Source: a virus
Taxonomy: Duplodnaviria > Caudoviricetes
Strand: one strand, 5' to 3'
DNA length: 64,000 nucleotides
IMG/VR virus record: IMGVR_UViG_3300009181_000072
Coordinates: 1,916 to 65,915 of that record
The notes beneath the pieces are model-generated. The model was given only the letters and a program-made list of their open reading frames with translations. It was not told the DNA's origin and ran no database searches. This document shows, in pieces, positions 2,572-46,756 of the stretch (position 1 is the first letter of the stretch; each line of letters starts with the position of its first letter). The position numbers were made by a program, and so were the translations under genes.

Positions 2572-2603
2572 GAATCAGCACACATCCAACGGAGATTTCC
2601 AAT

Positions 2604-6779: not shown

Positions 6780-8069
6780 ATGACCAAACAACTTGCATCA
6801 AACACTTTCTGCGCTGTACCCTGGGTTGGTATGGCTACTAAACCAAATGGCACAGCCAGAGTCTGCTGCTTAATGTACAGCCACGAAAATCAAGGGATAG
6901 TGTCAGACGATGATAACAATCCTTACAACTTTAGAGATGCTGACTTTGATCAGGTACGCAACGGCGATACATTTAGAGAAATCAGATTGGCATTGCTAAA
7001 TGGTGTAAAACATCCATTGTGCAACACTTGCTGGATAAAAGAAGACGCCGGATCTAACAGTCGCCGCCTGCAAACCAACCGTATCTATAAAGATGAGTTT
7101 ACACTCGATGCCGCTAAACAACATACAGATATCAACGGTCGAACTGATTGGCAACCCAGTTACTGGGATCTGAGATTTGGAAATCTCTGTAATCTAAAAT
7201 GTGTGATGTGCCACCCAAGTAGTAGCAGCCAATGGTATGATGACTATGTCATGTTATACAACGCTGAACAGTACACTGATGGCGGCGCTGTTATCAAACT
7301 GACAAAAAAAGCTAACGGAAAATATGATGCAGGCGGTGCATATGATTGGTGGAAATCTGAACAGTTTTGGAAAACTTTAGAGACTAAGATACCGTATATG
7401 AAGCAGATTTATTTGGTCGGCGGCGAACCAATGCTCATAGAACCTCATTACGAGTTCTTACAGAAGATAATAGATGCCGGTCGTGCAGCCGATATAGTGT
7501 TAGAATACGATACTAACATGACTGCTTTACATGTTCGATCATTTGATCTATGGAAGCATTTTAAAACTATTATACTTAGGACTAGTTTAGAAGACCATAG
7601 TATCCAGAACGATTATATACGGTATCCGTCCAAATGGCATGCTATTGAGAAAAATCTAGACACTATAAGATCTTGGAACGTGTCTAACATACAATGTTCT
7701 AGTTCGACAACCTGGCAGATACTGAACAGTTTCACAATTACCAATCTGCTGGATTATTTTGACAAGACAGATACAGAATATCACGTGCGTATACTTAATT
7801 CGCCGCACTGGTATGATGTCAAGATATTGCCAACACAGCTAAAAGCTTTGCTTATTGAGAAATATACCGCGTGGGCAGGTAGTAACGACAAACGGCAAAA
7901 GAAAATAGCAGTGCTAATAAGCTACTTAAACTCGCATATGGAAACGTATGACGAATCAGCACTTAAACGTTTTATTGCCCTGACAGATAGACTAGACAAA
8001 TCTAGAAACACCAACTGGAAAACAGTATTTCCAGAACTGTATGCTGGCTTAAAATATCTATACGACTGA
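6780..8069 (+). CDS. Radical SAM protein with N-terminal twitch-like Fe-S domain (#1)
   Basis: FCAVPW...CC...CNTCW; CNLKCVMC; GGEP; YDTN; C-term LDKSR. Confidence 0.9.
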   Translation: MTKQLASNTFCAVPWVGMATKPNGTARVCCLMYSHENQGIVSDDDNNPYNFRDADFDQVRNGDTFREIRLALLNGVKHPLCNTCWIKEDAGSNSRRLQTNRIYKDEFTLDAAKQHTDINGRTDWQPSYWDLRFGNLCNLKCVMCHPSSSSQWYDDYVMLYNAEQYTDGGAVIKLTKKANGKYDAGGAYDWWKSEQFWKTLETKIPYMKQIYLVGGEPMLIEPHYEFLQKIIDAGRAADIVLEYDTNMTALHVRSFDLWKHFKTIILRTSLEDHSIQNDYIRYPSKWHAIEKNLDTIRSWNVSNIQCSSSTTWQILNSFTITNLLDYFDKTDTEYHVRILNSPHWYDVKILPTQLKALLIEKYTAWAGSNDKRQKKIAVLISYLNSHMETYDESALKRFIALTDRLDKSRNTNWKTVFPELYAGLKYLYD

Positions 8070-8101
8070 TAATATTATTGTTTGTAGAGTGAGGAAATTA
8101 A

Positions 8102-9352
8102 ATGGATACGGTTAACAAGTCGTCACTAGATAGCAATTCTAAAGTTGTAAATTGGCTGCTCGGTAATAATTTTTGTGCGATGCCGTTTGTGCATGCTGCT
8201 ATAGAATCAAATGGTGATGTTAGAGCATGCTGCATGGCAGATCAATTAGAAGATAACGACGGCAATAGATTGAACATTAATGACCTATCGTTAACAGATG
8301 TATTAGAACATCCGGTATACGTTAAATTCAGAGAATCATTTACTAATAACCAGCAACATCCGTCGTGTGCTGCTTGTTGGAAATCTAATGATATATTTTC
8401 ACCTAGGATAAAATTTAGTGCTGTACCGGCGTTGGATAATTACATGCAAAGTGTAATGTCTGGTGGTAAATTAGATTCCAATCTGTTAAAATTAGAAGTG
8501 AAAGCTGGTAATAGATGCAATCTAAAATGTAGGATATGCGGTCTGATAAACAGTTCTCAATGGTTAAAAGAAACTTACGATTATAATGTACAGCATGGTA
8601 TTACTGTGTTACCTTTTAAAGAAAGTGACGAATATAAATATAATCAACAATGTAAATGGATAGACTCTGACAAGTTTTGGACAGACACCCAAAGCTTAAA
8701 CGATATTCGTGTTGTACACATGATGGGCGGTGAGCCGATGATGATACCAGAACACAAGATATTATTACAGAAACTGCTAGAGTTAAAACATTTTAGTGAG
8801 ATACAAGTATGGTACAATACTAATGCTACCTATGTACCAGATCAAGAGCTTGTTGATATACTCAGCCAATTTAAACAAGTATCAATGTCGTTAAGTATCG
8901 ACGACATCGGTGAACGATTTGAATATCAACGCAAGAATGGTAGCTGGGATACAGTAAACACTGTTCTAGATTTCTTTGAAACTAAAAAAGATGTATGGCA
9001 CGTTGGTATCGATCCGGCAATTAGTATTTTTAATATCATGTATCTAGATGATCTTGTAGAATATTTCACGAGTCGAGGATTTGGTGTATTTGATAATCAT
9101 TTTGTTGATAGTTTGTGGAGCATACGAGCTATTTCTACAGATGCAAAACAAGAGATAATGCAACATTACCAATCTGCTAAACATAAAGATCATCACACTA
9201 TAAAAACTGCATTAGAATATATGCAAACTAACGAGCATACAGACGTTACTGCATCTAATCGCAATGAACGAATTCAATTTTTTGATAAAACTAGGAATGA
9301 GTCGTTCGCTACGACATTTCCAGCGATGGCAAGGATTATGAACTATGAATAA
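8102..9352 (+). CDS. Radical SAM protein with N-terminal twitch-like domain (#2)
   Basis: FCAMPF...CC...CAACW; CNLKCRIC; GGEP; YNTN; SID. Confidence 0.9.
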   Translation: MDTVNKSSLDSNSKVVNWLLGNNFCAMPFVHAAIESNGDVRACCMADQLEDNDGNRLNINDLSLTDVLEHPVYVKFRESFTNNQQHPSCAACWKSNDIFSPRIKFSAVPALDNYMQSVMSGGKLDSNLLKLEVKAGNRCNLKCRICGLINSSQWLKETYDYNVQHGITVLPFKESDEYKYNQQCKWIDSDKFWTDTQSLNDIRVVHMMGGEPMMIPEHKILLQKLLELKHFSEIQVWYNTNATYVPDQELVDILSQFKQVSMSLSIDDIGERFEYQRKNGSWDTVNTVLDFFETKKDVWHVGIDPAISIFNIMYLDDLVEYFTSRGFGVFDNHFVDSLWSIRAISTDAKQEIMQHYQSAKHKDHHTIKTALEYMQTNEHTDVTASNRNERIQFFDKTRNESFATTFPAMARIMNYE

Positions 9353-11021
9353 TAAAAAACTTAGCCCGACTATATGCATGATGCCATTTGCTAGCATTAA
9401 TATCCATGCTACTGGCAAAATCGTTAGGTGCCAGATGAGCGAAGATGAAATGGGTGATGTTGTAAACGGGTCAATAGTAAAGCAGTGGGAAAATGAAGCA
9501 TTCCAAGAGTTGCGACAAGATCAGATAGACGGCAATTGGAATCGAGGCTGTACAAATTGTCTGCGTAAAGAATCTGATGGTATCAAGAGCAAGCGATTGC
9601 ACTGGCAATCTTTAGCTGTTGCTAAGGAATTTTGGGATACAAAAGATTTCAAATCTAGTATAGTTAAAAATGACATATTACATATGGATATAGCGTTCAA
9701 TAACTTATGTAATTTCAAATGTAGGATGTGTTCGTCTGCATACTCAAATGCTTGGATCTCAGATGAGAAAAAGCTCAAAGATGCAGGCTTAGCTGGCGGA
9801 AGTAGCGGAAGTCAGCTACCGAAACTTGCTACTACATACAATCGAGAAAAAAATCAGGTAACAACTGAGCAGTTGACGGAATTGTTAGATAATGCGCCTA
9901 ACTTGCAACGTGTTGAGATACTAGGCGGCGAACCGTTCCTTGTGCCAGAATTTATGACATTTTTAGATGAGATGCGCAGTCGCGGTATCCATAAAAATGT
10001 AGAATTGATGGTCACCACAAATGGTAGTCTGATAACAGAAGAAAAGCTAGACAAACTATTGGGTTTTAAATACGTAAATATTAATTTTAGTTTAGATGCA
10101 ACAGGGGACCTATTCTCATACATGCGATCTGCTGGATTATTTACGTTTGAACAAATAGATAAACAACTTGATCTAGTTTTAGCATGGACTAAGAAAGCAA
10201 CTGCTACCGGATATGGTATATACAAGGTTAACATAAATGGTGCTTATCAGATCTATAATATGTTAAATATCAAAGATTTCATCGAATACATCATAATGAA
10301 ATTTAACTGGTATGAAACACCCCCTATTGAAAATAGTAAGTATCGGCATAGTTTCGAACATCGCATAGTTCTCAATGATACACTTTCTGCAAAAAGTGCA
10401 CCTATTAATCTCAAGTTAGAAAGCAATACACAGATAGATTGGTTGATATCTAAATATCCGTTTTTATTAGACATATCTGAAAAAAGCTACATATTAGATA
10501 TCAAGAAGACCTGTAATCAATACCATGATTCAAAAGATACTGATAGTATTCAGTTTGTTAAATTTACTAGAGAACTAGATAACATACGCGGTGTATCAAT
10601 TGATGATGTGGCGCCGGACGTCATTAAACATTTTTTGCATATAACCGACGATGATTGGCTTTCATATCATCTAGAGTTACAGTCTCGTCCAACAATCACA
10701 GCAGGCTCGTCTGCTATTCCGCATTTCAAAAACTGGCGAACGCTGTATATAAGAAATCTATATCGTGCACTGCACGAGAACAACGTGTTTACACTACTCT
10801 CAATTGAATACGATAAAGATATGCCATACGATGATGCATATTATGTTAGCAAGATATTAGAAGTTCGTTACTCTATATCAATGATAAGCAAAGATGACAA
10901 CAACGATATCCGCCATACTATAAAAACACTGTTTGATAGTGAATTTTATCGTATGTATTATATGATACCAGACAAGTTACAAGCACTAGCAGACATGCTG
11001 GGTAAGAAAATACTAGAATGA
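9345..11021 (+). CDS. Radical SAM protein with N-terminal twitch-like domain and C-terminal extension (#3)
   Basis: ICMMPF...RC...CTNCL; CNFKCRMC; GGEP; TTNGS; ~130 extra residues beyond the paralogs' C-terminus. Confidence 0.9.
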   Translation: MNNKKLSPTICMMPFASINIHATGKIVRCQMSEDEMGDVVNGSIVKQWENEAFQELRQDQIDGNWNRGCTNCLRKESDGIKSKRLHWQSLAVAKEFWDTKDFKSSIVKNDILHMDIAFNNLCNFKCRMCSSAYSNAWISDEKKLKDAGLAGGSSGSQLPKLATTYNREKNQVTTEQLTELLDNAPNLQRVEILGGEPFLVPEFMTFLDEMRSRGIHKNVELMVTTNGSLITEEKLDKLLGFKYVNINFSLDATGDLFSYMRSAGLFTFEQIDKQLDLVLAWTKKATATGYGIYKVNINGAYQIYNMLNIKDFIEYIIMKFNWYETPPIENSKYRHSFEHRIVLNDTLSAKSAPINLKLESNTQIDWLISKYPFLLDISEKSYILDIKKTCNQYHDSKDTDSIQFVKFTRELDNIRGVSIDDVAPDVIKHFLHITDDDWLSYHLELQSRPTITAGSSAIPHFKNWRTLYIRNLYRALHENNVFTLLSIEYDKDMPYDDAYYVSKILEVRYSISMISKDDNNDIRHTIKTLFDSEFYRMYYMIPDKLQALADMLGKKILE

Positions 11022-12178
11022 ATAAAAACAATTTTTGTCATATGCCGTGGCATGGTATCGCTATAGCTGCCAATGGCAATGTAAAACCGTGCTGTCAATA
11101 TTCGCATGGTGTAGATCAAGTTGGTTCCGATACTGATATTACAGCTGCCTATAATAATGATCAAATGAAGCGTATCAGGTCTCAATTCTTGCAGGGTGAA
11201 TCGCCTAGCGGTTGCAATAGCTGTTGGCAGCGCGAACAGCAGATAGGTACAAGCCGGCGTATATGGTTTGATGAAAAGTTTGGTCGATACATACCAACTG
11301 GCTACAAATATACTGAAAACGTTACCGATCCAGTATGGATTCAAGCAGACATAAACTTCTCAAACGTCTGTAATCTCAAGTGCAGGATGTGTGGCAGTTG
11401 GGCTAGCAACCAATGGTTTGACGAAGAACTGCGTTTGGCAAATATTGATTCTAAGTTTATGAAAAACAAGAATCCGGTGCCGCTAATACAGCACGATCTT
11501 GCACAATTACAGAGCATGCTGCCGCACATACAACACATGCGTCGCATTGATTTTAAAGGCGGAGAACCGATGCTTGCAAAATATCATAATCAGTTTTTGG
11601 ATTGGCTTATAGATAAAGGCCACAACAAATCTATCACTCTGCAATATACTACAAATGGCACAGTTATCAATCCGGGTATAGTAGATAGACTGTCTAGATT
11701 TGAGAATGTTAGGATAATGTTCAGCGTAGAAGGTACTGGATCGCTATATCAGTATATCAGAGGCGGCGCTCATAGTTTAGACGAAGTTGTCAATAACATA
11801 TTCAAATATGATCAACTAGATAACGTGTTGATAGGATTCAATGTCACGATACAAGCATACAACATATTAAATCTACGAGAGTTGCACACGTTCTTACATG
11901 CGTTGCCACTTAAACACGGTAGTGCAATCGGTGCATTTACTACCATATGTAACAACCCAGATTATCTCAGTCCGTTTGTTGTACCAGACGACTTGCGAGA
12001 TCTAGCAGTTGATAGGTTAGACGGTATTACAGAGTTACACCATTTATCGAATCAATTACAGAAGCGTGTGTGGGATGCAAGTAAGTGGCAAACATTTGTA
12101 GAATATACTCAACATCTCGACAAGTGGCGCAACGAACGCATCGTAGATCATGCTGCAGAATTTGCCAAGTTCTTCTAA
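11018..12178 (+). CDS. Radical SAM protein with N-terminal twitch-like domain (#4)
   Basis: FCHMPW...CC...CNSCW; CNLKCRMC; GGEP; YTTNGT. Confidence 0.9.
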   Translation: MNKNNFCHMPWHGIAIAANGNVKPCCQYSHGVDQVGSDTDITAAYNNDQMKRIRSQFLQGESPSGCNSCWQREQQIGTSRRIWFDEKFGRYIPTGYKYTENVTDPVWIQADINFSNVCNLKCRMCGSWASNQWFDEELRLANIDSKFMKNKNPVPLIQHDLAQLQSMLPHIQHMRRIDFKGGEPMLAKYHNQFLDWLIDKGHNKSITLQYTTNGTVINPGIVDRLSRFENVRIMFSVEGTGSLYQYIRGGAHSLDEVVNNIFKYDQLDNVLIGFNVTIQAYNILNLRELHTFLHALPLKHGSAIGAFTTICNNPDYLSPFVVPDDLRDLAVDRLDGITELHHLSNQLQKRVWDASKWQTFVEYTQHLDKWRNERIVDHAAEFAKFF

Positions 12179-12283: not shown

Positions 12284-13675
12284 GTGAGATACTTTGAGAA
12301 ACTACAGGATCGCAGATTAGGTATCGGCTGGTTAGATATATTTGATCGTGTCAACGACGATTTCATAAAATCTGTAACACAAAATCTAACCAGTTACTGG
12401 GTAGGAGAATCGTCTGTTTTTTGGCAGATACCAAACTCTTATGGTCCTAGCGTAGATGTGCTATTAAACGATGCAGCTGACACTGATTTAAAGTGGCTGA
12501 TAATCTGTGCACCCGGCCTGACATTTGTCAGAGATGGTAACTTTTTCCAAATACTATCAACTATGATAGACGGCTTGTCTAATACTGCACTAATGGGACA
12601 TGTGCTGGATACGGGCGATCAGTATTATCAATTGCACCATCAAACCTTGCTTGTAAATCTAGATTGGTATAGAACACATAACAGACCAGAATTTGGTAAA
12701 ACAGACGACCTTGCATGGGAAACAATAGAACCTCTCCGTAGCGAAGAAAGTTTCCACGACGGATATACACCAATCTGGGTGAAAAACGGCAACACATCTC
12801 GGAATTATACCGGAAAAAAACCAGGATGGAATTTGATTAAATCTGCACTTGAATCTGGATACGATGTTAAACCATTTAACAAAGACCTTAGATTAAGCAA
12901 GTACTATTATTACCCAGATGTTGAAGGCGACTGGCCTACTAAGTTAGGTCCAATGAGTTACGATTTGCAGACAACTGTTCACTTCGTTTCAAATACAGAA
13001 TCAGTCATTTATGTTCCCGACGAACACGTTGGAACTTTTGACATATGCATGTTCCCAGCAGGAGGTATTAATGCAATTCTAATACCCTGGATGCTGCGCA
13101 TGAAAACAAATACTACTGTTATGATAAACGATATCAGTCCATTGGCGCTGGACATGGCAGGTAAATTAGTTGCAAATTATCGAGGCGGATCGCTAAACGA
13201 ATTCTTAAACAACAGCTACATATGGCCTAGAGATTCTCAATTTTTTAGAGGATTTTACCGTGCATCTGATCTGAACGAAATATCTGCAATGCAAGAAATA
13301 ATTGATGCAGAAATGAAAAACGGTCTTGGAGAATGGATAGATACGGTTATGCCAACCTTAACCTACCATTTCAATTGTGCAAATGTATTTGATGAAAATG
13401 ACTGGTGGGCATTTTCGCAAGGGGTGCATAGCAAACGCAAAGTGTACGTGAACCTGAGTAATATATGGCATTATTTGCCAACAACAATGATTTTCAGCTT
13501 GAAGAATCGCATGAAGATGCATGATAAAATGATGACTAGATTATCTCAATTAGATGCAGATATACAGCTGCACTATGTACACCCGACGTTAAAAAATATG
13601 ATGTATGTTGCACCAATTGATGCACTGGCTGTACCTATCAATCATAAATTTAAGGTGTTACCATGGAACAACTAA
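12284..13675 (+). CDS. Uncharacterised 463-aa protein in the radical SAM operon (possible transferase; weak methyltransferase-like C-terminal half)
   Basis: Long ORF coupled to the downstream hydroxylase; GHVLD, YQLHHQ, FHDGYTP and MINDISPLAL, VNLSNIW motifs; function not recognised. Confidence 0.55.
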   Translation: MRYFEKLQDRRLGIGWLDIFDRVNDDFIKSVTQNLTSYWVGESSVFWQIPNSYGPSVDVLLNDAADTDLKWLIICAPGLTFVRDGNFFQILSTMIDGLSNTALMGHVLDTGDQYYQLHHQTLLVNLDWYRTHNRPEFGKTDDLAWETIEPLRSEESFHDGYTPIWVKNGNTSRNYTGKKPGWNLIKSALESGYDVKPFNKDLRLSKYYYYPDVEGDWPTKLGPMSYDLQTTVHFVSNTESVIYVPDEHVGTFDICMFPAGGINAILIPWMLRMKTNTTVMINDISPLALDMAGKLVANYRGGSLNEFLNNSYIWPRDSQFFRGFYRASDLNEISAMQEIIDAEMKNGLGEWIDTVMPTLTYHFNCANVFDENDWWAFSQGVHSKRKVYVNLSNIWHYLPTTMIFSLKNRMKMHDKMMTRLSQLDADIQLHYVHPTLKNMMYVAPIDALAVPINHKFKVLPWNN

Positions 13676-17201: not shown

Positions 17202-17202
17202 C

Positions 17203-17544
17203 ATGGCTAACACTACTAACTTCAACAATATCATAGTACATTATGATGACGGCAGCAATGCTGAAGACAATGTCAACAACCTGCTAGCGCAAGAACAAAA
17301 TGACTTTAGAGGTTGGGAGTGTTGGGCAGGCATACAAAATATCACCATAGACAACCAAGGTATAGTATGGCGTGCAATATGCCGAGTTGGAAAACCATTG
17401 GGTAACATCTATGACGGTTTTGAGATGCCAACAGATACCATAACCTGTACTAAATCTCGCTGTACGTGTGCAGCAGATATACAATTAAGCAAGGCTAGGC
17501 CTGATCATATAAAGCGCTTGCGAGTTGGTAATGATGTCATTTGA
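17203..17544 (+). CDS. Stand-alone SPASM/twitch-like Fe-S domain protein
   Basis: NDFRGWECWAG...RAICRVG...CTKSRCTCAAD matches the C-terminal domains of 15556 and 20601; ATG 1 nt after the upstream stop. Confidence 0.8.
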   Translation: MANTTNFNNIIVHYDDGSNAEDNVNNLLAQEQNDFRGWECWAGIQNITIDNQGIVWRAICRVGKPLGNIYDGFEMPTDTITCTKSRCTCAADIQLSKARPDHIKRLRVGNDVI

Positions 17545-18772: not shown

Positions 18773-18776
18773 AAAC

Positions 18777-20051
18777 ATGAACAGTAAGAACATAGATCGA
18801 GCAAAACAAAGCAAGAGTTTCTGCATCTTGCCTTTTACTCACGTAGCTACTAAAACCTACGGTGACATTAAACTCTGTTGTCGTAGCTTACCAGTTGGTA
18901 ACATTAAAGAACAGCCATTAAGTTCGATATGGAACAGTGATCGTTACAGACAGATACGCAAAGACATGTTATCTGGCGAACGTCCAGCAGAGTGTAATAT
19001 ATGTTGGAATCAAGAAGATGTAGGCGTTATAAGCATGCGCCAGCGTCTCAATAACGAACGTTCATATATGTCTCCCCAATTGTCTAAATGCAACGACGAG
19101 TATGCTATTCCATTTGAAATTCCGGTTTTAGAATTAAAGTTAAGCAATTTTTGTAATCTAAAATGCCGTATGTGCCACCCATTAGATAGTACTAGTTGGT
19201 TTAGTGACTGGAAGACTATTGAACATCTCATGGCTACTAATAACAAGGGTACATATGACAAGGTCAATAAAATGACTAGTCCGTATCTAAGTGCATGGGA
19301 CGACGAAACGTTCTGGAAAGAATTTGATGAATTGTTACCGCATTTTAGGATAATAGAATTTGCAGGCGGAGAACCTCTTATTGATCCGATACATTATAAG
19401 GTATTAGAAAAACTTGCACCGTATGGTCACCAGATACAACTAAAGTATGCTACAAATTTAACCAATATTGTTTTTGGTAAAACTAAAATATTTGATATCT
19501 GGGATAATTTCTCAGAAGTACACTTGCATGTTAGTATAGATGGTATGGGAGATATGTACGATTATATCAGGCAAGGTGCTAACTGGCAACAACTAATAGA
19601 TAATATAGATGCTGTGTCGCAACGTCGCAATGTTGTAATGTCACCTCAAATTACTGTCCAGATTTATAATATACACCAGCTACCGGAATTTTTTGATTTC
19701 TTTACCGAACGTATGGAATGCAAGCTGGTATCGCACCGAGTAGATTTTCCGAAATTTTTAAGTATTAAATGTCTACCTCCGAAGTATAAAGCAAAAATAA
19801 TAGCACAATTAGAAGAGTATGCAACAACTATAGTTGATAAAACTCATGTTAGATGGACAGATCAAAAAAAGACACATGTTTACGATCTCATCTACAATGA
19901 GATAAAGATATTAAAATCTCACGATAATTCTAAATTATTGAAAGATTTTGTAGAATTTAGTAATACGTTAGACAATGTTCAATCTGTAAAACTAACATGG
20001 AAAGAGTTACTTGGCGAATTACACACTGAACTACAAGAACTTAAGATATGA
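18777..20051 (+). CDS. Radical SAM protein with N-terminal twitch-like domain (#7), close paralog of #6
   Basis: FCILPF...LCCRS...CNICW; ELKLSNFCNLKCRMC; EFAGGEPLIDP; SIDG. Confidence 0.9.
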   Translation: MNSKNIDRAKQSKSFCILPFTHVATKTYGDIKLCCRSLPVGNIKEQPLSSIWNSDRYRQIRKDMLSGERPAECNICWNQEDVGVISMRQRLNNERSYMSPQLSKCNDEYAIPFEIPVLELKLSNFCNLKCRMCHPLDSTSWFSDWKTIEHLMATNNKGTYDKVNKMTSPYLSAWDDETFWKEFDELLPHFRIIEFAGGEPLIDPIHYKVLEKLAPYGHQIQLKYATNLTNIVFGKTKIFDIWDNFSEVHLHVSIDGMGDMYDYIRQGANWQQLIDNIDAVSQRRNVVMSPQITVQIYNIHQLPEFFDFFTERMECKLVSHRVDFPKFLSIKCLPPKYKAKIIAQLEEYATTIVDKTHVRWTDQKKTHVYDLIYNEIKILKSHDNSKLLKDFVEFSNTLDNVQSVKLTWKELLGELHTELQELKI

Positions 20052-20608
20052 AAATATGCATCACCGGCAATCCGGCAGTTGGTATAGCTAAAGAACTTGT
20101 AGCTATCTATCCAGCTGCTACTTTCATTAGTCGATCAACCGGATACGATTTAACTACAGCTAGGGACCAAGAGCGATGTGCAGAAGTGTGCTTGCAACAC
20201 GATGTGTTTATTAATAACTCGGCTTTATGGAAATTTAATCAAACGGTCTTATTAGATACTGTATATAAAAAGTGTATTGCTGCTGATCATTGGATGCATA
20301 TAGTCTGCGTCGGTAGTACAACTGATAGAGTGAAAAACGGTAAAGTTTGGTTGTATAATGCTGATAAGAAGGCACTTCGAGATTACTGCAACACACTTGC
20401 ATTGAGCGGAGTATGGGGCGTTGGTCCAAAGATAAGCTACATTAGCATGGGTACATTATCAAACAACCAGCACAAACATTCAGATAGGAAATGCTTAGAT
20501 ATTGCCGAAGCTGCCAAATACATAGAGTGGTTGACTAATCAACCTAAATATGTAAACATTAATGAGATAAGCATTGATCCAATGCAGGACAGGCGATGGT
20601 ATGAGTGA
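20048..20608 (+). CDS. Compact short-chain dehydrogenase/reductase (SDR-like)
   Basis: KICITGNPAVGIA Rossmann start, DVFINNS, VGS, YxxxK (YNADK), VNINEISI. Confidence 0.8.
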   Translation: MKICITGNPAVGIAKELVAIYPAATFISRSTGYDLTTARDQERCAEVCLQHDVFINNSALWKFNQTVLLDTVYKKCIAADHWMHIVCVGSTTDRVKNGKVWLYNADKKALRDYCNTLALSGVWGVGPKISYISMGTLSNNQHKHSDRKCLDIAEAAKYIEWLTNQPKYVNINEISIDPMQDRRWYE

Positions 20609-21728
20609 ACAGCTTCATCTAAGCAAGTATGACTTTACACAAATACCATTCCAGGACATAACAAAATTTGGTCAACGTACATTGCTGTATAGAGATATAT
20701 TCTGTGTTAGTTGGCTGTTAGGACGATTCTGTAATTATAATTGTAGCTATTGCTGGCCATATGCACGTAGCGATACCAAAGATTATCGCCCGTTTGAGCT
20801 CAATGCTATGACAATGGACGAGATTAAACGCCAAAGCCGAGAACGAAATTTTAACAGCTTTCATTTTAGTTTTAGCGGCGGCGAACCAACTGTGTATCCC
20901 GACTATCTTAGACTACTAACGCACTATAGTAATGACACTGAAAATTGCAATTACCAAAGTGTGCATATGACTAGCAATGTTAGCCAGGGTATGCGATATT
21001 TTGAAAAATATGTCAATGCCACTAAAGATTTGCACCGCGTTAGTGTCACTGCTAGCTGGCACAGAGAACAAGGTATAAAGCAAGGCGATCTAAGAGGCCA
21101 TACTGAGAAATTTGCCGATAAATTGGTTTATCTGCAAGAGAACGACATACAAGTTACTGTTAACACAGTTATGGTTCCAGAGTGGTTCGATACGTTGTAC
21201 GAAGAAGCCGAGTACTTTTTAAGCAGGGGCATTAACGTTACACTTAAACCTCAAAGCGATCCAACTGCTAGCAAAGTGGTAAACGGATACAGCCCAGAGC
21301 AGCTAGCTACATTGCACAATGGTATGCCCCAGAGAGACTTTACTACAGTCAAAAGCAAAGTAGAGCGCCCAAAGCCGCGCATAAGCATGCAGAAGATGAG
21401 CATTGAAAACGGCGATGATGCTACAGTACCTCAGATCATGCAGGTTGAGTTTGAAGATAGCACTGGCAAGAAATGGTATATGGATCAAGCCGAAAGATTC
21501 AATGCGTTTGAGTTTAACAGCTTCAAAGGTTGGGCGTGCGAAAGCGGGTATCGTAGCATCATCATACGAGAACCAGATGGTGCGATCAAACGCAGCTACA
21601 GTTGTGACGATAAACCATTGGGTTATATCGAAACTGGATTTAAACTATTTGACACACCGATGGTATGCATTAGCAACGCATGTGTAAGCTCGGCTGATAG
21701 TAAGATACCAAAACGTAAATCGTTTTGA
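20601..21728 (+). CDS. Radical SAM protein with C-terminal SPASM/twitch-like domain
   Basis: CNYNCSYC, FSGGEP, MTSN, SWH; C-term GWACESG...RSYSC...CISNACVSSAD. Confidence 0.9.
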   Translation: MSEQLHLSKYDFTQIPFQDITKFGQRTLLYRDIFCVSWLLGRFCNYNCSYCWPYARSDTKDYRPFELNAMTMDEIKRQSRERNFNSFHFSFSGGEPTVYPDYLRLLTHYSNDTENCNYQSVHMTSNVSQGMRYFEKYVNATKDLHRVSVTASWHREQGIKQGDLRGHTEKFADKLVYLQENDIQVTVNTVMVPEWFDTLYEEAEYFLSRGINVTLKPQSDPTASKVVNGYSPEQLATLHNGMPQRDFTTVKSKVERPKPRISMQKMSIENGDDATVPQIMQVEFEDSTGKKWYMDQAERFNAFEFNSFKGWACESGYRSIIIREPDGAIKRSYSCDDKPLGYIETGFKLFDTPMVCISNACVSSADSKIPKRKSF

Positions 21729-21788
21729 GATAAAATGAGTGTGTGCAATGTATAGTGCGTTGCCATTTATGATTAGTAGGATATTGTG

Positions 21789-22016: not shown

Positions 22017-22030
22017 AGATACTGCTTGTT

Positions 22031-22669
22031 ATGGAAATTATAACGTATAATCATTCCTGCATTGATTTATTACAGCGCTATTTTGACCATCCCTTAACTC
22101 CTGAAAATAATAAGAATCACAAGATTTTTAAGACAGATCTTTATGACGGCGTCAACGGTGTTATGTTTTTAATCCTTGACCATGGCGAGATAGTGTCGAC
22201 ATTCGGTGCTATCAAAGTTGATATGGATTCTAAGATTCAAGCTATAAAAATGCCGCATCGATTGCATGTGAGATCTGATTACACTGCTTATCACCACAGA
22301 TTTGTGGATGATTGGTTTGAACCTCAACTTTATAAATGGATAGAGAGTGTGGGTATTAGAAATATATATCAAACCATGAATTTTGGCAACGAGCGTGCCA
22401 TGTGGTTATCGTCGCTACGTCATAGACGCAGGCGCAGATATCATGTGGATTCTGTTAATTCTCTAGGGCAGCAATTCATAATGGCCAAATGGCAGATACT
22501 ACCATATCTAGTATACGAAAAGCACACATGGCAATATGCATATTGGGCATCGTTGGATAATATTGTTTGGCAAGACAACTGGCGGCAGATTCGCCTGATA
22601 GACCAACCGATGCAAAGCATGTTAGATCAGAAGTTCCATAAAGACGCTAGCGGATCCTGGCTACTTTAA
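22031..22669 (+). CDS. Hypothetical protein (weak GNAT-like appearance)
   Basis: MFLILDHGEIVSTFG...RLHVRSDY pattern; last gene of the + strand operon. Confidence 0.5.
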   Translation: MEIITYNHSCIDLLQRYFDHPLTPENNKNHKIFKTDLYDGVNGVMFLILDHGEIVSTFGAIKVDMDSKIQAIKMPHRLHVRSDYTAYHHRFVDDWFEPQLYKWIESVGIRNIYQTMNFGNERAMWLSSLRHRRRRRYHVDSVNSLGQQFIMAKWQILPYLVYEKHTWQYAYWASLDNIVWQDNWRQIRLIDQPMQSMLDQKFHKDASGSWLL

Positions 22670-23481
22670 ACAGCTGGCAGTTTTATAAGCTTTAGTCGAT
22701 CAAACAACAGCGCTACCCATCTGCCACTGTCGAATTCCCACCAACTGCCGCCTATATCATACCGCCACCCACCCTGTCGATGATGATGGTTGTTGTGCAA
22801 TCCAGTGTGTCCCAACGTTCCCCAGTTGAGAAATATGTTGTTAACGCTGTTGTCGCCTGATTCAAATGGGCGTTCGCTTAGTGGGAAATTGACATGCTCT
22901 AGGTAGTTGGTAACCATGTAGGTGTAATAGTTATAGACTGCAGGCCAAGCACACACGATCATGAATAATTTTGGACTGATTGCAAACGTCGCAATGTAAA
23001 GTGCAAATACTAGATCAAAATAATGCTTGTGTAACCATACATGTATCTTTTCTTTTAAGAAATCTTTGGTATAGAATATGGTTTTATCAAACTTAGTATA
23101 GTCGTAATCTAGACTCAACATCTGCAACAAGCTTAAATGTATTGGACTATGCGGATCGTTAGCAGTATCAGATGTGCTATGGTGCAAACGGTGTAGTGCT
23201 GCCCATGCCAACGGACTCCCTACTCCTGCAGGTATAGTGCATATCACGGTTAATATCTCAAATAGCTTGCTAGCTTTGAATGCTCTGTGGCTATAGTACC
23301 TGTGGTATCCTAGATCCATGAAGATCGAAAGAACAAGTGCTGCTGTAACAGCTAATGCATAGTCTGACAAGTCGAAGATAAAGAACGAGCCTATCAATCC
23401 TATATGTGACAACAAGGTAGCTATTCTAACGAACCAGATATCCGTCTTAATATTAAACTTTTTCTTAAGCCATCGTATCAT
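22666..23481 (-). CDS. Membrane fatty-acid (delta-9-like) desaturase #1
   Basis: His boxes HRYYSH, HRLHH (followed by SDT.NDPHSP), HNNHH; hydrophobic segments. Confidence 0.92.
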   Translation of the reverse strand: MIRWLKKKFNIKTDIWFVRIATLLSHIGLIGSFFIFDLSDYALAVTAALVLSIFMDLGYHRYYSHRAFKASKLFEILTVICTIPAGVGSPLAWAALHRLHHSTSDTANDPHSPIHLSLLQMLSLDYDYTKFDKTIFYTKDFLKEKIHVWLHKHYFDLVFALYIATFAISPKLFMIVCAWPAVYNYYTYMVTNYLEHVNFPLSERPFESGDNSVNNIFLNWGTLGHTGLHNNHHHRQGGWRYDIGGSWWEFDSGRWVALLFDRLKLIKLPAV

Positions 23482-23813
23482 CGTTTATCCTTTGCACTTG
23501 TCCATAATTGATCAAATTCCCTGGCAAGCTCGGGTGACACCCGCCAGTAAAAATCTTCAAACTGCTTCCATGATTTTACTGCCTTAACATGTAATTGGTA
23601 TAATTTTTTATCAAACACACTAAGTTCTTTCCTTGGTATTGGCAGCAGATCAGCATCGCAAGGTATTTTGATACTGTCAGCTGATAATATCATGTACTTA
23701 TAATGTGCATAGTACCAGGGTATATCCATAGCACCATTTAGCATTTGACAGTATTGAATGTTATTTGTGCTGGTATATACATTGCTAAATTCAGTGCCTA
23801 CTACGTATATCAT
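23478..23813 (-). CDS. Hypothetical protein
   Basis: 111-aa ORF with 4-bp ATGA overlaps on both sides. Confidence 0.6.
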   Translation of the reverse strand: MIYVVGTEFSNVYTSTNNIQYCQMLNGAMDIPWYYAHYKYMILSADSIKIPCDADLLPIPRKELSVFDKKLYQLHVKAVKSWKQFEDFYWRVSPELAREFDQLWTSAKDKR

Positions 23814-25396
23814 GACAGGAGTTTGGCCATATATGTTGTGCGTAGCAATTTCTTTCTTTTTTGTGATTCGTTAACATGATTAATATCAGTATTATACATA
23901 TTTTTGATCTCGTGATGTTTGAATCCTAGATTCTTCATGCGATTGTAATCTTGGAAATATGTTAGGCTAAATTTCTGTGGGCATGCAGGATTGTCGTGAA
24001 ACTCTTTTACCAGTGCCCTTGCTTCGTCGCTGGTCATAATTTGACTCTGCCAAGAACTATTACCTAACTTGGCATAACCATATTCATCTGGATTAGCGCT
24101 AATCTTACTCATATGCTTCCAGGTTAATCCTTGTTTATTCTCAGAAAAGCCAGACTCTAATGCAGTAGCCTTTTGTTCTTTTGGAAATTTAATGTTTGGT
24201 GATCCTTCTAGAAAATACGGATACACACCTACGGCTGATAGCGGGTTAGCGTCACTGTATAGATATTCAAAAGTATCGTATATGCTCTCTTTGGTTTCAT
24301 ATGGCAAACCTACTATAAATCCAGCACTCATATAAACATCATCGCCCCAGAGCTTACGAAGCTTTTGCAATGTTTGTTTTAAACTGTCGGGGTCTGCCCC
24401 TTTACCTATATGCTTACCACTTAGCCTATTAAATGTTTCGATACCAAAATTTACAGAAGTTAACCCCATCTCTTTTAGTTTGATTGCCATATCAAAATGC
24501 GTATCTATGATGTCTAGTCTACAGTATGCGCTAAATGTGATTTTAAATGGCAAACTGGTTATGGTAGTGTGTAGATGATCTATCTTTTCCTGACTGTCAT
24601 TGAGCGTGTCGTCGGCTATCATGTAGTCAGTTATACCAAATGTTTCGTAGTTGTATATAAATTCTTCGCGCAGGGTTTCGCTGCACTTGTTATAATCTCC
24701 AAATTTCTTGCCATTGAGATTAAAGCTACAGAAAGAACATTTAAAGATGCACCCTCTAGCTGTTTCTATTGGTATGCTTTCATTTGAAAATAGAAAGTCT
24801 CGATCAGTCCATGTTATTTTACTACTGCTAAATTCTGCAAACGGATACATGGTGTCTGTTAATAGCACTGCATGATTTGTGTGCAAAAATTTGATATCAG
24901 CCCCATATTTGAGATGATTTGCTAAAGCTATAATGCTACCTTCGCCTTGGCCCAATATCCAGTAATCTATGTTTGGTATCTTATGATTGCTTTTTGTAGC
25001 TTTGTACCCACCTACTACTATCTTACAACGGTTGCTACGTTTGCGTATAGTGTTGAAAAAGTGTTCTACAAATGTTGCATCCTGCGGGAACAAATCTGTC
25101 CAGCTGCTGTTCATGATCTGCATGAGACTGGTATTTTGTTCTAATAACGAAACGTATTCGGCATCTGAGTAATATTTGGATAATAGTGTGCTAGCTATAC
25201 CGACTATTATGGTGGTATCATCTAGATATCTATCCAATATCTGATCTAGTTCTTCCTTAGTCAAACTAGCAAAAAACTCTACAACTTGCACATCGTAACC
25301 ATGTGATCGCAATTCGGATGCGATGCGATATGGCCCGCTATACCTACCAAATCCTATCAAACCGTTTATATCGTTGAATATTATTATTTCAGCCAT
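23810..25396 (-). CDS. B12-binding domain radical SAM enzyme (class B-like) #1
   Basis: GPYRIASELRSHGYDVQVVEF, KIVVGG, GQGEGS; ETARGCIFKCSFC; ADDT; FGIET; FIVGLPYET. Confidence 0.9.
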   Translation of the reverse strand: MAEIIIFNDINGLIGFGRYSGPYRIASELRSHGYDVQVVEFFASLTKEELDQILDRYLDDTTIIVGIASTLLSKYYSDAEYVSLLEQNTSLMQIMNSSWTDLFPQDATFVEHFFNTIRKRSNRCKIVVGGYKATKSNHKIPNIDYWILGQGEGSIIALANHLKYGADIKFLHTNHAVLLTDTMYPFAEFSSSKITWTDRDFLFSNESIPIETARGCIFKCSFCSFNLNGKKFGDYNKCSETLREEFIYNYETFGITDYMIADDTLNDSQEKIDHLHTTITSLPFKITFSAYCRLDIIDTHFDMAIKLKEMGLTSVNFGIETFNRLSGKHIGKGADPDSLKQTLQKLRKLWGDDVYMSAGFIVGLPYETKESIYDTFEYLYSDANPLSAVGVYPYFLEGSPNIKFPKEQKATALESGFSENKQGLTWKHMSKISANPDEYGYAKLGNSSWQSQIMTSDEARALVKEFHDNPACPQKFSLTYFQDYNRMKNLGFKHHEIKNMYNTDINHVNESQKRKKLLRTTYMAKLLS

Positions 25397-26543
25397 GGAC
25401 TGATTTCTCTAAGTGATTGTATAATGTTTTCAATTCTGGTACACTGACCGAGACATCCTGACCTCGTAGTTTATCAAGCCGCTCTGTGAATCTAAACCAT
25501 TTTTCTAAAAGTGCAGCATCTTCTCGACCGGTGTGTGCTGCTTCTGCAGTTGGCACGTGTGTTATTAGTTGTTTCTCATAATCTGGCAATATGTGAATCT
25601 TGAGATGCGCTGGATTATACAGAACTTTGTCGTCGTATGTCGGAACGAATCCCAACGATTTTTCGCATTCGGTTTTCAACTTATGATTATCAAATGCATT
25701 GTAAATCATGATGGTATTACTGATAAAGAACTGCGTCACGTTGTCTAATTTTAAGAAGCTCTTTGTGTTTTCTAGAATTTTTGGTACTGGAGTTTCGTTG
25801 CCTCTGATATATTGATTCAATCCGTTGCTGGCATCAATGCTAACACCTAACAATATATCATTAAACTGAGAAATTAGATCTAAAAAATCTGCATCTAATA
25901 TAGTACCATTGGTGGTTAGATCTAAGCTAACTTTGGATTTATCTTTGATGTTAGACAACAGATACATAGTTTCATCTGCATAGCATGGTTCTCCGCCGCG
26001 CAAGCTGATGCAAGTGTGTTCGTCTTTGTTATTGATAATATCCAGCAGTTGGTCTAATTGTTCAATGTTAAGATGGTTATAACGTACAACTTTCTTTTCA
26101 AGCTCAGCTGAATATCCGAATATGCTCTTGATTTCCTGGTCGTGATACTCTGGTATCCATGCTGTGCTCCATTTTGGTTTGCACATGCGACATTTGCTGT
26201 TGCACTTGTTGCTGATATATAACTCGATATAGTTAGTGCGGTGGAATAATCTATCCCCGGCTTGTTCTGCAGTTAGTTGTGACGACAGCTGCAGGTTTTT
26301 CTTTTGTCGCCAGCTAGACAACGATTGACTTTCGTTTTTCCAGCACACATTGCAGGCTGCAGGTCGTTCTCCTGCTAACATTGAATCTTTAAGATCTTGT
26401 AGCTCTGCGCTAGCTAAGTAATTTTTTATGTCTGATTGTCTAACACTATCAACCAAGCAGCACACCTGTACATCGCCCCACGGTTGCAGCACTATCCCTT
26501 GCCACGGTAGTGCACACCACGACTGCGATACTGCATCAGGCAT
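25389..26543 (-). CDS. Radical SAM protein with N-terminal twitch-like domain (#8)
   Basis: WCALPW...VCC...CNVCW; CNSKCRMC; GGEP; TTNGT; SIDA; YIRG; LDKLRG. Confidence 0.9.
   Translation of the reverse strand: MPDAVSQSWCALPWQGIVLQPWGDVQVCCLVDSVRQSDIKNYLASAELQDLKDSMLAGERPAACNVCWKNESQSLSSWRQKKNLQLSSQLTAEQAGDRLFHRTNYIELYISNKCNSKCRMCKPKWSTAWIPEYHDQEIKSIFGYSAELEKKVVRYNHLNIEQLDQLLDIINNKDEHTCISLRGGEPCYADETMYLLSNIKDKSKVSLDLTTNGTILDADFLDLISQFNDILLGVSIDASNGLNQYIRGNETPVPKILENTKSFLKLDNVTQFFISNTIMIYNAFDNHKLKTECEKSLGFVPTYDDKVLYNPAHLKIHILPDYEKQLITHVPTAEAAHTGREDAALLEKWFRFTERLDKLRGQDVSVSVPELKTLYNHLEKSVHG

Positions 26544-45124: not shown

Positions 45125-46756
<1,632 letters not shown>

Follow-up and report, generated by a model that had tools for sequence, protein, structure and literature searches.

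Eight open reading frames in the 64,000-nucleotide stretch of DNA analysed here (the window) encode intact members of NF033640 (N_Twi_rSAM, a subfamily model for twitch domain-containing radical SAM proteins), a very large catalogued radical SAM family. They lie in a ~24-kb island of low GC and foreign composition, which holds 13 radical SAM genes and is inserted in the genome of a freshwater tailed phage, with the tail sheath gene on one side and the tail tube gene on the other. The best explanation of the whole, to which we would give a probability of about 0.45, is that the array and the other enzymes of the island edit a sugar-type molecule, the paralogs acting at different positions or steps. 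As NF033640 carries no assigned function, membership gives the proteins a name and no explanation, and a literature search found no paper on the family. The eight proteins do not differ in kind from NF033640; what stands out is how many copies there are (eight), that a phage carries them, and that they form a mosaic of cassettes.

Eight radical SAM proteins with an N-terminal cysteine domain

All eight frames (named here by their left coordinate, Table 1) are open; the positions 17531 and 18777, given as starts in the initial annotation, are ATGs internal to the frames 17525 and 18750. Each exceeds the curated NF033640 cut-off of 170 bits (range 203–389 bits), the matches covering nearly the full 398 positions of the model, and with the full 65.9-kb record searched in all six frames only these eight came out above it; the N-terminal-twitch model of NCBIfam to which the initial annotation pointed exists and is NF033640. 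In an eight-way alignment (6780 numbering) the invariant residues are C11, P14, G24, C29, C81, C84, S94 and R96 in the N-terminal part, N135, C137, N138, C141, C144, S149 and W152 around the SAM motif, and G214-G-E-P217, T245, N246, S269, R281 and N316 in the remainder, a shared pattern far beyond chance. The four N-terminal cysteines and the CX3CX2C motif are kept in every copy, so the predicted cluster ligands are intact as had been claimed, and the first two cysteines are always exactly 18 residues apart; a wider alignment of 59 sequences shows C24, C25, C74, C77 and the three SAM-motif cysteines without exception, and C6 with a conservation of at least 90%. The C-terminal motif seen earlier “in most” copies, [LF]DxxR, is present in six, 18750 having LDNVQ and 17525 lacking it. 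Pairwise identity among the eight is 21–36% (mean 26%), and the only repeat common to the copies at the DNA level is a 36-nt stretch encoding NxCNxKCxxC.

In the published description, SPASM and twitch domains extend the enzymes at the C-terminus (PMC9012708); here the twitch-type module (C-x17-C ... CxxC, four invariant cysteines) stands before the CX3CX2C/GGEP core, which bears out the inverted architecture proposed earlier. Pfam places SPASM (PF13186) at residues ~6–90, ahead of Radical_SAM, in seven copies (22.9–45.5 bits; cut-off 21.5); 25389 gave no SPASM match in the Pfam search, and by motif has the same cysteine pattern as the others. The Radical_SAM cut-off itself is passed by seven, 6780 scoring 26.6 versus 29.5 bits. 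Partial NCBIfam alignments, of 17525 residues 30–89 on positions 257–315 of 349 in TIGR04317 and of 18750 residues 24–108 on positions 235–317 of 326 in NirJ2, show that N-termini of the copies fall on C-terminal parts of canonical enzymes; judged by sequence, the N-terminal domain is homologous to SPASM/twitch. With SPASM maturases (anSME, PqqE, SkfB, CteB, SuiB) the copies share this Pfam-recognised module and core motifs (GGEP, TN, SxD, R) of the maturase subgroup type; they differ in domain order and in having the first cluster site only, the second SPASM motif (CX2CX5CX3C) being absent from the N-terminal module, and neither a precursor peptide nor an RRE turned up. Solved radical SAM enzymes are matched through the core only (12 PDB sequence hits at E<=0.01, the best being 8vpo, SkfB (6efn) and CteB (5wgg)).

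A mosaic island between sheath and tube genes

Table 1. Genes of the island and its two borders (window coordinates)
Feature	Coordinates	Strand	Evidence
Tail sheath (1371 aa), left border	2559..6674	+	phrog_10581 E 3e-246; PF17482
N-twitch radical SAM paralog 1 (429 aa), cassette A	6780..8069	+	NF033640 366.6 bits
N-twitch radical SAM paralog 2 (416 aa), cassette A	8102..9352	+	NF033640 271.9 bits
N-twitch radical SAM paralog 3 (558 aa)	9345..11021	+	NF033640 233.9 bits
N-twitch radical SAM paralog 4 (386 aa)	11018..12178	+	NF033640 306.7 bits
463-aa protein, His-rich N-terminal domain	12284..13675	+	no family match
Cupin, Asp/Asn beta-hydroxylase family	13663..14409	+	PF05118 E 4.8e-12
N-twitch radical SAM paralog 5 (387 aa), cassette B	14406..15569	+	NF033640 389.3 bits
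Radical SAM, second design, Cys-rich C-terminal domain (STM4011-like)	15556..16482	+	PF04055 E 1.5e-10
Split radical SAM, second design	16479..17544	+	Pfam and NCBIfam searches
N-twitch radical SAM paralog 6 (415 aa), cassette A	17525..18772	+	NF033640 289.5 bits
N-twitch radical SAM paralog 7 (433 aa), cassette B	18750..20051	+	NF033640 355.5 bits
Short SDR-like protein (186 aa), cassette B	20048..20608	+	weak SDR matches only
Radical SAM, second design (384 aa), cassette B	20574..21728	+	PF04055 E 1.1e-14
Membrane desaturase-like protein	22666..23481	-	NF049918 E 4e-12, far under its cut-off
B12-binding-type radical SAM (528 aa)	23810..25396	-	PF04055 E 4.8e-15; weak B12-binding match
N-twitch radical SAM paralog 8 (384 aa), most divergent	25389..26543	-	NF033640 203.5 bits
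Membrane desaturase-like protein	26536..27333	-	PF00487 E 2.8e-15
Cupin, weakly Asp/Asn beta-hydroxylase-like	27333..28247	-	PF05118 E 5e-4, under cut-off
B12-type radical SAM, no B12 domain detected (476 aa)	28326..29756	-	PF04055 E 1.3e-12
Cupin, Asp/Asn beta-hydroxylase family; last island gene	29868..30434	-	PF05118 E 6.8e-9
Tail tube, right border	30557..31150	+	phrog_4542 E 2.4e-50

In most relatives the tail sheath gene is immediately followed by the tail tube gene. The island's gene content is accessory and varies between close relatives: at the same site L242 carries genes for an AMP-binding enzyme and a thiolase, and L241 for a desaturase and a cupin, and homologues of 26536 sit directly upstream of the tube gene in L239–L241. 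Near-identical DNA was found in runs of 13 studies dated 2017–2025.

No two of the eight copies are sisters in the tree, and seven fall into clades (support 0.88–1.0) with orthologues from other contigs; as each of these seven is closer to orthologues from other viral contigs than to its fellow copies, they were not duplicated inside this phage, which settles against in-phage duplication the alternative that the initial annotation had put to phylogeny. The array is instead a mosaic of at least two cassettes circulating among environmental phages. In L001, L003 and L035 the copies 6780 and 17525 have orthologues at 50–55% and 49–52% identity and 8102 has reciprocal best hits at 41–45%; 14406 is 53–58% identical to proteins of L045, L061 and L069, and 18750 has its reciprocal best hit in L045 (47%). 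The two non-twitch members of cassette B follow suit, the SDR-like protein with 51–62% identity in L061 and L069 (homologues in 18 of 78 viral loci) and the radical SAM 20574, which has no match in cultured phages, with 61–63% in L045, L061 and L069. For the eighth copy, 25389, a comparison with six loci gave no orthologue more than 29% identical. The copies 9345 and 11018, whose stop and start overlap by 4 nt, are the two halves of one fused protein of 840–850 aa in L001, L003 and L035; 9345, which has ~115 extra residues at its C-terminus, is 50–53% identical to residues ~1–450 and 11018 is 49–51% identical to residues ~455–850.

Such arrays are not special to this phage: at least two copies are held by 69 of the 78 viral loci fetched, many of the best 150 representatives in the database are double enzymes in tandem, two complete jumbo phages carry 7 and 14 copies and Bdellovibrionota genomes up to 16, and 14406 alone matches 1542 database proteins at E<=1e-10. 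Constraint is strong where it is measurable, with dN/dS of 0.03–0.09 in the four computable of five orthologue pairs between the related L001 and L035, far from the value near 1 that the initial annotation had named as a refuting outcome. Between the window and its nearest orthologues dS is saturated in seven of ten pairs and the other three give 0.19–0.31; among the 40 of 280 population differences listed, those in N-twitch genes change 17 codons synonymously and 13 non-synonymously. The eight copies are ancient, separately conserved lineages. The earlier suggestion that each has a job of its own gains indirect support from these lineages with their own orthologues, from purifying selection and from the 9345/11018 fusion, while the “assembly line” drawn from it is as conjectural as before.

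For the 463-aa protein (12284), searches of Pfam, NCBIfam, PHROG and PDB sequences gave no family; H106, H118, H158 and D159 are invariant, and from its motifs the C-terminal stretch looks like a Rossmann methyltransferase. Its N-domain is fused with two N-twitch units in L054 and L056 and with a cupin in L154, fusions which link all three, and its orthologue adjoins that of the 13663 cupin in L001, L003 and L035. Residues 222–293 of 15556 align with positions 183–254 of NF038073, well under its cut-off. The split radical SAM consists of a core (16479–17201) and a separate Cys-rich tail ORF (17164–17544, likely ATG 17203), which form a single ORF in L069 (7853–8827) and two adjoining ORFs in L001, L003 and L035. 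The best NCBIfam matches of 23810 are TIGR04072 and PhpK-type, far under their cut-offs; those of 28326, of the same types, are weak.

Proposed chemistry and competing readings

Each N-twitch enzyme would combine the SAM-cleaving [4Fe-4S] cluster with a predicted, fully Cys-ligated auxiliary [4Fe-4S] cluster; the enzyme would abstract a hydrogen atom from a C-H bond that is not activated and pass the second electron to the auxiliary cluster, a two-electron oxidation of the BtrN/anSME type, or would carry out a redox-neutral variant, for example an epimerisation. BtrN (2-deoxy-scyllo-inosamine dehydrogenase, PDB 4M7T), the prototype twitch radical SAM enzyme, has a cysteine spacing like that of the N-twitch module, one four-Cys auxiliary cluster site, as predicted for the window copies, and a pathway context of the sugar/cyclitol type; its twitch domain is C-terminal, unlike theirs, and the PDB search at E<=0.01 did not bring it up, no specific similarity being detected. 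Four-Cys ligation is the BtrN condition tied to two-electron oxidation, whereas MoaA has three (PMC9012708). The substrate would most likely be an amino sugar, a cyclitol, a nucleotide sugar or an assembled surface glycoconjugate, on which the paralogs, some of them paired (9345 with 11018), may work at different positions or steps, with further decorations from the cupin hydroxylases, the SDR-like and methyltransferase-like proteins and the B12-type radical SAMs; in the infected cell a host envelope glycoconjugate might be remodelled or a phage component decorated.

A sugar-type substrate is favoured because of the cellular neighbours, among them glycosyltransferases, deoxysugar enzymes and carbamoyl- and amidinotransferases. 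In 22 annotated cellular loci, hand-picked and not a random sample, glycosyltransferase or nucleotide-sugar genes lie within 8 kb in 7, or in 10 with carbamoyltransferase and polysaccharide deacetylase counted in, and 12 have only housekeeping or unannotated flanks. In an isolate genome (G001) 5 of 11 GT2 matches lie at C1:1,884,958–1,893,610, interleaved with N-twitch genes at 1,889,836 and 1,893,640; in L119 an NDP-hexose 2,3-dehydratase and FdtA adjoin. Recurrent neighbours in 155 loci include a NodU-type carbamoyltransferase (12), UDP-glucose/GDP-mannose dehydrogenase (8) and DegT aminotransferase (4), and one neighbour family matches the inosamine-phosphate amidinotransferase StrB1 (E 8.8e-73). 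The fusions that involve the N-domain of the 463-aa protein count in favour of this reading too. The window island itself has no glycosyltransferase or sugar-nucleotide enzyme recognisable by Pfam or NCBIfam, and most viral neighbour families are without annotation.

The enzymes could instead be peptide or protein maturases, introducing cross-links, epimerisations or oxidations into a ribosomal peptide or a phage structural protein (such as the enlarged sheath, or fibres), a reading we consider unlikely. SPASM/twitch radical SAMs are familiar above all from RiPP pathways (PMC9012708, PMC11002830), many peptide maturases appear among the weak, sub-threshold NCBIfam matches, and the three island cupins are of the Asp/Asn beta-hydroxylase family and would hydroxylate the same target; TPR repeats in 2 of 17 long family proteins hint at protein partners, the tandem array of 10 dioxygenases in cyanophage Syn9 has been read as peptide or secondary-metabolite tailoring (PMC2938197), and the island directly follows the sheath gene. 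However, among the small ORFs of the island none is rich in cysteines or repeats or conserved in any other way, homologues of the 76-aa and 111-aa ORFs of the window are absent from the 78 viral loci, Pfam and NCBIfam found no RRE, peptidase or exporter domain, a sheath gene is near the arrays in none of the 78 loci, and the informative cellular contexts are of the glycan type.

Less probable still is that the island alters membrane or outer-membrane lipids (lipid A included) of the infected cell, the radical SAMs acting on acyl or isoprenoid chains, where they would form or modify C-C and C-H bonds in company with desaturase-like and hydroxylase-like enzymes. It would account for the two desaturase-like membrane proteins, for the two B12-type radical SAMs (best sub-threshold NCBIfam match: a lipid biosynthesis B12/radical SAM protein), for the genes of L241 and L242 at the same site and for a weak core similarity to archaeal tetraether synthases; LpxO, a lipid A hydroxylase, is of the same cupin family as the island cupins. 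Yet desaturase-like genes stand beside the arrays in just 6 of 78 viral loci, those of the window island sit in a separate minus-strand module, every lipid-enzyme match is far under its family cut-off (63 versus 360 bits), and seven of the eight N-twitch genes lie in plus-strand cassettes without lipid genes. The minus-strand part, with its desaturase-like proteins and cupins, and L242 do look lipid-like, which counts against the sugar reading.

There is little to commend viperin-like or QueE-like chemistry on nucleotides or DNA bases, for the phage genome or for host interference: partial pVip matches (20–62 bits) and viperin_w_prok matches (up to 63.8 bits), a recurrent PP-loop ATPase neighbour with a QueC-like C-terminus and a distant KVP40-group homologue called QueE by some annotators point that way, but the matches are limited to the generic core and far under the cut-offs (viperin_w_prok 180, QueE_Clost 260 bits), no DpdA, FolE or QueD-type partner appears in any Pfam result, and NF033640 is a distinct model matched end to end by all eight. 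Decaying or redundant paralogs without present function, as the accessory nature of the island and the missing motif of 17525 might suggest, are already disfavoured and very improbable, given eight open frames with every catalytic and cluster residue kept, orthologues conserved across phages at low dN/dS and near-identical DNA over years of sampling.

Comparable arrays in other phages

The T4-like Campylobacter phages CP220 and CPt10 have 11–12 radical SAM genes and an interchangeable five-gene module that includes an amidinotransferase, an accessory, swapped-in island as in the window (Timms et al. 2010, PMC2853527). CP220 has no match above the NF033640 cut-off and seven weak ones, to the core only (best 30.9 bits), so its radical SAMs are of other designs. 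In aquatic, T4-like pelagimyophages a hypervariable island of the structural region, the host recognition cluster, has radical SAM cassettes that set close relatives apart; it also holds glycosyltransferases and an Asp/Asn beta-hydroxylase and lies between VrlC and gp14, whereas that of the window lies between sheath and tube and has no recognisable glycosyltransferase (Zaragoza-Solas et al. 2020, PMC7029224, the relevant passages of which mention the cassettes and name neither family nor architecture of the radical SAMs). The array of Syn9, likewise an aquatic T4-like phage, resembles the window in its many diverged tailoring oxidoreductases in tandem and in having no scaffold-building enzyme; there they are O2-dependent 2OG dioxygenases, here radical SAM enzymes (Iyer et al. 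2010, PMC2938197).

Domain order in eight radical SAM paralogs

Eight open reading frames (384-558 aa, within 6780-26543), which the initial annotation had described as diverged paralogs of a radical SAM enzyme with its auxiliary Fe-S domain at the N-terminus, were found to be open at the coordinates it gave; the frames are real, but the starts placed at 17531 and 18777 are internal ATGs of frames opening at 17525 and 18750. As whole proteins, all eight score 203.5-389.3 bits against the NCBIfam model NF033640 (N_Twi_rSAM; curated cut-off 170 bits, 398 model positions), and the matches begin at model position 1-2 and end at 374-398. The initial annotation had pointed to an N-terminal-twitch model in NCBIfam; NF033640 is that model, and each of the copies (hereafter N-twitch) belongs to it. 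A six-frame scan of the entire 65.9-kb virus record recovers the same eight over the cut-off and no others. The family is very large, comprising 7,269 representatives of 50%-identity clusters at E<=1e-30 in a full HMM search, and has no member with a known reaction; among its best 150 representatives, tandem doubles of about 800 aa are common.

A module of four cysteines, occupying residues about 6-95, precedes the CX3CX2C motif in every copy, and the spacing from the first to the second cysteine is always 18 residues. Invariant in an eight-way alignment (numbering of the 6780 protein) are C11, P14, G24, C29, C81, C84, S94 and R96 of the auxiliary part and N135, C137, N138, C141, C144, S149, W152, the GGEP motif at 214-217, T245, N246, S269, R281 and N316 of the core; the auxiliary domain proposed to stand ahead of the core is borne out by this invariant Cys set. 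Pfam places a SPASM domain (PF13186, model positions 1-67, 22.9-45.5 bits at a cut-off of 21.5) at residues about 6-90, ahead of Radical_SAM, in seven copies; the protein of 25389 has no PF13186 match, yet its Cys pattern is that of the other seven. CX3CX2C and GGE motifs are present in all eight, and PF04055 exceeds its 29.5-bit cut-off in seven, the 6780 protein scoring 26.6 bits. The total number of cysteines per protein is 8-11. As the module contains no Cys beyond the CxxC in any of the eight copies, and the second cluster motif (CX2CX5CX3C...C) was not found in them, it provides one auxiliary site and is a twitch rather than a SPASM domain, which has two.

In the canonical subfamily, as set out in the relevant part of a review (PMC9012708), SPASM and twitch domains are C-terminal extensions of the core, whereas in the window the domain is N-terminal in all eight copies. 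Partial NCBIfam alignments relate the module to such C-terminal Cys regions of canonical enzymes: residues 30-89 of the 17525 protein align to positions 257-315 of the 349 of TIGR04317, and residues 24-108 of the 18750 protein to positions 235-317 of the 326 of NirJ2. Comparison by hhalign with the C-terminal Cys domain of the other radical SAM enzymes of the island aligned the hairpin only, at a probability of 2.7%, and lent no support to the homology. From sequence homology, the N-terminal cysteines are predicted to make a cluster site beside the barrel. Literature searches on the family name and on N-terminal SPASM or twitch domains returned no relevant paper, and the inverted order was absent from what they retrieved; searches on radical SAM paralogs of Bdellovibrio and on STM4011 likewise gave nothing relevant.

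Cassettes, selection and occurrence

Pairwise identity of the eight copies is 21-36% (mean 26%), and the sole DNA repeat common to them is a 36-nt stretch encoding the SAM-cluster motif. None of the window copies pairs with another as its sister in a tree built on 257 family proteins (window plus 78 viral loci); seven fall into clades (support 0.88-1.0) beside proteins of other contigs, and 25389 is the only one without a close relative. Reciprocal best hits to other viral contigs define two cassettes, A and B (see table). Because of the two cassettes and the separate clades, the array is not derived from duplication inside the window phage, which the initial annotation had weighed against repeated acquisition; it is a mosaic of old, circulating cassettes. 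A recent duplication is rejected on the tree and on the lack of shared DNA repeats other than the motif stretch.

Coordinates of features in the window and of related loci (L, fetched viral or cellular loci; G, Bdellovibrionota genomes; single numbers are left coordinates of genes)
Feature	Location	Strand	Description
Tail sheath	2559-6674		1371 aa, 4.1 kb
Island	6780-30434		13 radical SAM genes: eight N-twitch, three of a second design (C-terminal Cys domain), two of B12 type
N-twitch genes	6780, 8102, 9345, 11018, 14406, 17525, 18750	+	
N-twitch gene	25389	-	
Second-design radical SAM genes	15556, 16479/17164, 20574		
Cassette A	6780, 8102, 9345, 11018, 463-aa protein, cupin, split radical SAM 16479/17164, 17525		Orthologues of 41-55% identity in L001, L003, L035, in similar order
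Cassette B	14406, 18750, SDR-like 20048, radical SAM 20574		Orthologues of 47-63% identity in L045, L061, L069
Adjoining N-twitch genes	9345-12178		Stop of 9345 overlaps start of 11018 by 4 nt
Fused counterparts of 9345 and 11018	L001:11603-14155, L035:4594-7143, L003:13903-16425		Single double enzyme of 840-850 aa
463-aa protein	12284-13675		
Split second-design radical SAM	16479-17544		Core ORF and Cys-rich tail ORF; same in L001, L003, L035
Unsplit counterpart	L069:7853-8827		Single ORF
Tail tube	30557-31150		
GroEL-type chaperonin	45131-46756		Full length; phrog_5725, E 1.5e-175
N-twitch genes and TnsA-like gene	L243:4449-7229		
StrB1-like family	L040:7634-8716, L103:10461-11531		Also in 11 other loci
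Tandem N-twitch runs	G003:C1:792852-803016, G003:C1:1068646-1092743, G001:C1:1858482-1894914		

Two members of cassette A, 9345 and 11018, correspond to the N-half and the C-half of one double enzyme; their fusion in three related contigs suggests that they work as a pair. At its C-terminus the 9345 protein has an extension of about 115 residues that lacks a counterpart. The split of radical SAM 16479/17164 is conserved, and the gene is therefore probably a two-subunit form, not a broken gene. As for the 463-aa protein, its N-domain has invariant His and Asp residues and its C-domain a methyltransferase-like stretch; no family was found for it in Pfam, NCBIfam, PHROGs or PDB sequences, profile searches of PDB sequences and Pfam included, and its N-domain is fused elsewhere to N-twitch units or to a cupin.

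Relaxed selection (dN/dS near 1), envisaged at the outset as an argument against distinct working enzymes, is not what the genes display. Paired with their nearest orthologues, the window genes have dN values of 0.37-0.70; seven of the ten pairs are saturated in dS, and dN/dS in the other three is 0.19-0.31. For L001 against L035, dN/dS is 0.03-0.09 in four of five orthologue pairs, the fifth being saturated. Comparison of the island with contigs of four freshwater runs, a small sample consisting mostly of one diverged contig, gave 17 synonymous and 13 non-synonymous codon changes in N-twitch genes (from 40 of 280 differences), that is, a pN/pS of roughly 0.25. With 14406 as metagenome query no relative was confirmed; a 90%-identical relative of it, used as query, found loci of 62% identity or less.

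In IMG/VR, at least 618 of the 668 stretches listed by a degenerate-pattern scan were confirmed, and 78 loci were kept; an HMM based on the eight copies detects two or more copies within about 21 kb in 69 of these loci, and four or more in 38. Two complete jumbo-phage records contain 14 and 7 copies over the cut-off. Of 616 stretches from the pattern scan of prokaryotes, each species being represented by a single genome, 287 were confirmed, and 54 of the 77 cellular loci kept carry Bdellovibrionota-type titles. Three Bdellovibrionota genomes hold 7, 11 and 16 copies, the 16 in a genome of 1.9 Mb; at least one copy is found in 26 of 121 sampled genomes of this group, as against none of 14 control genomes with a match over the NF033640 cut-off. 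A joint tree of 397 viral and cellular proteins requires at least 56 switches between the two labels, a number that misbinned contigs could inflate. Given 7-16 copies per genome in phages and predatory bacteria and the strong purifying selection, the product must be of importance to its carriers.

The 14406 protein has matches in only 18 cultured-phage records, none above 27% identity, and radical SAM 20574 has no match in cultured phages. In Ralstonia phage RsoM2USA two proteins annotated as hypothetical exceed the cut-off; Vibrio phage K566 has two over and three just below it. Campylobacter phage CP220, noted in the pertinent section of PMC2853527 for its 11 radical SAM genes, has no NF033640 match over the cut-off. 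Radical SAM cassettes of aquatic T4-like phages are mentioned in passing in the relevant lines of PMC7029224, and an excerpt of PMC2938197 describes in cyanophage Syn9 a tandem dioxygenase array that is analogous to the radical SAM array.

Candidate substrates

Gene context is the only clue to the substrate and for this reason tailoring of a sugar-type substrate is favoured, by BtrN-like radical oxidation or epimerisation with one site per paralog; this reading is tentative, with a probability of roughly 0.45. In 22 cellular loci picked for annotation, non-randomly, from large arrays and isolates, glycosyltransferase or nucleotide-sugar genes lie within 8 kb in seven, and in ten if carbamoyltransferase and polysaccharide deacetylase are counted; the other 12 are uninformative. 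In the Bdellovibrio isolate G001, a stretch of no more than 9 kb has five of the 11 GT2 hits interleaved with N-twitch genes; a search of this genome for Wzx (PF01943) was negative, and its only Bac_transf hit is in another locus. Over all 155 loci, recurrent neighbours include NodU-type carbamoyltransferase, UDP-glucose dehydrogenase, DegT aminotransferase, PP-loop ATPase, 2OG beta-hydroxylase and an amidinotransferase, the profile of which has inosamine-phosphate amidinotransferase StrB1 as its best PDB match (E 8.8e-73). The representative of this StrB1-like family, which is absent from the window, has no Pfam match at E<=0.001. Weighed against a sugar are the absence of a recognisable glycosyltransferase from the window island and the fact that most viral neighbours are unannotated.

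The proposed likeness to BtrN consists of four-Cys ligation and gene context. The relevant part of PMC9012708 links the four-Cys auxiliary ligation of BtrN to two-electron oxidation and gives MoaA a three-Cys site with an open iron; the four invariant cysteines of the window copies imply a fully ligated auxiliary cluster. A specific sequence relationship was not found: BtrN is not among the 12 hits at E<=0.01 in a profile search of all PDB sequences, and the solved structures that match (8vpo, SkfB, tetraether synthase, CteB, viperin, BlsE and MoaA) do so by the core only.

TPR repeats in two long family proteins also count against a sugar. A peptide or protein as substrate is unlikely. Neither a precursor peptide candidate among the island ORFs of at least 25 aa nor an RRE domain in the Pfam or NCBIfam results was found; a shorter or more distant precursor may exist. 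The minus-strand module of the island looks lipid-like, a further point against a sugar, and lipid is a very unlikely substrate. A nucleotide is highly improbable; the prokaryotic viperin model (NF038283/pVip, cut-off 180 bits) reaches at best 63.8 bits, with the 16479 protein, and 38.2 bits or less, over the core only, with N-twitch proteins, and PADLOC returned partial viperin-core matches only, besides one weak candidate family for the B12-type enzymes.

If the sugar-type substrate were a surface glycan or glycolipid, the islands would be a new route for phages to alter host surfaces. A wider proposal, decidedly unlikely as a whole, is that the arrays perform combinatorial radical 'editing' of an assembled envelope glycoconjugate or virion decoration: many site-specific twitch-first enzymes, some fused or paired, would rewrite unactivated C-H positions by oxidation, epimerisation, or C-C or C-X coupling, and jumbo phages and predatory Bdellovibrionota, which both invade Gram-negative cells, would exchange cassettes and so change surface identity in the course of invasion. 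Were this true, carbohydrate polymers would have a new enzymology and phage host-remodelling islands a new class. The window is a compact, intact set of eight N-twitch and five other radical SAM enzymes, finishing enzymes and a natural split/fused pair; together with the cultured phages that have family members, it makes the question of the enzymology directly testable.

Genomic setting of the island

Outside the island the window is a myovirus/T4-type core with tail sheath, two tail-tube-like proteins, large terminase, gp32-like SSB, UvsX, UvsY, GroEL, DnaB-type helicase and primase. Besides its radical SAM genes the island encodes three cupins of the Asp/Asn beta-hydroxylase family, two desaturase-like membrane proteins, an SDR-like protein and unknowns, and its genes have a mean GC of 39.9% versus 47.2% for 17 core genes (Mann-Whitney, p 1.3e-7). 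Of the 55 relatives for which over 3 kb of sequence is available upstream of the tail tube gene, the sheath directly adjoins the tube in 44 and lies 0.8-1.8 kb from it in nine; in the remaining two (L241, L242) desaturase-like or cupin genes adjoin the tube. Island-type genes are also found directly upstream of the tube in L239, L240 and L243, which have less upstream sequence. These five loci are the closest relatives (78-91% tube identity) and differ in island contents; the junction at 6674-30557 and its counterparts in them hold radical SAM, cupin and desaturase-like genes, and L242 in addition an AMP-binding enzyme and a thiolase. The island is an accessory, variable insertion and the sheath-tube junction an insertion hotspot.

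In L243, two N-twitch genes downstream of the second tube-like gene are followed by a gene for a TnsA-like endonuclease, which may be a vehicle for cassette movement. The tail sheath of the window is longer than the sheath ORFs of relatives (about 2.2-3.5 kb), and Thr, Ser, Ala, Gly and Val are abundant in its additional N-terminal and central part. Sites resembling promoters or terminators did not exceed the level of shuffled sequences, and searches for tRNAs, Rfam families and tandem repeats found none. CheckV gives the 65.9-kb record a completeness of 8%; either the estimate is poor or the genome would be implausibly large. Near-identical DNA, with no RNA run listed among the sequencing runs that contain it, occurs in runs of 13 freshwater or lake metagenome studies dated 2017-2025.
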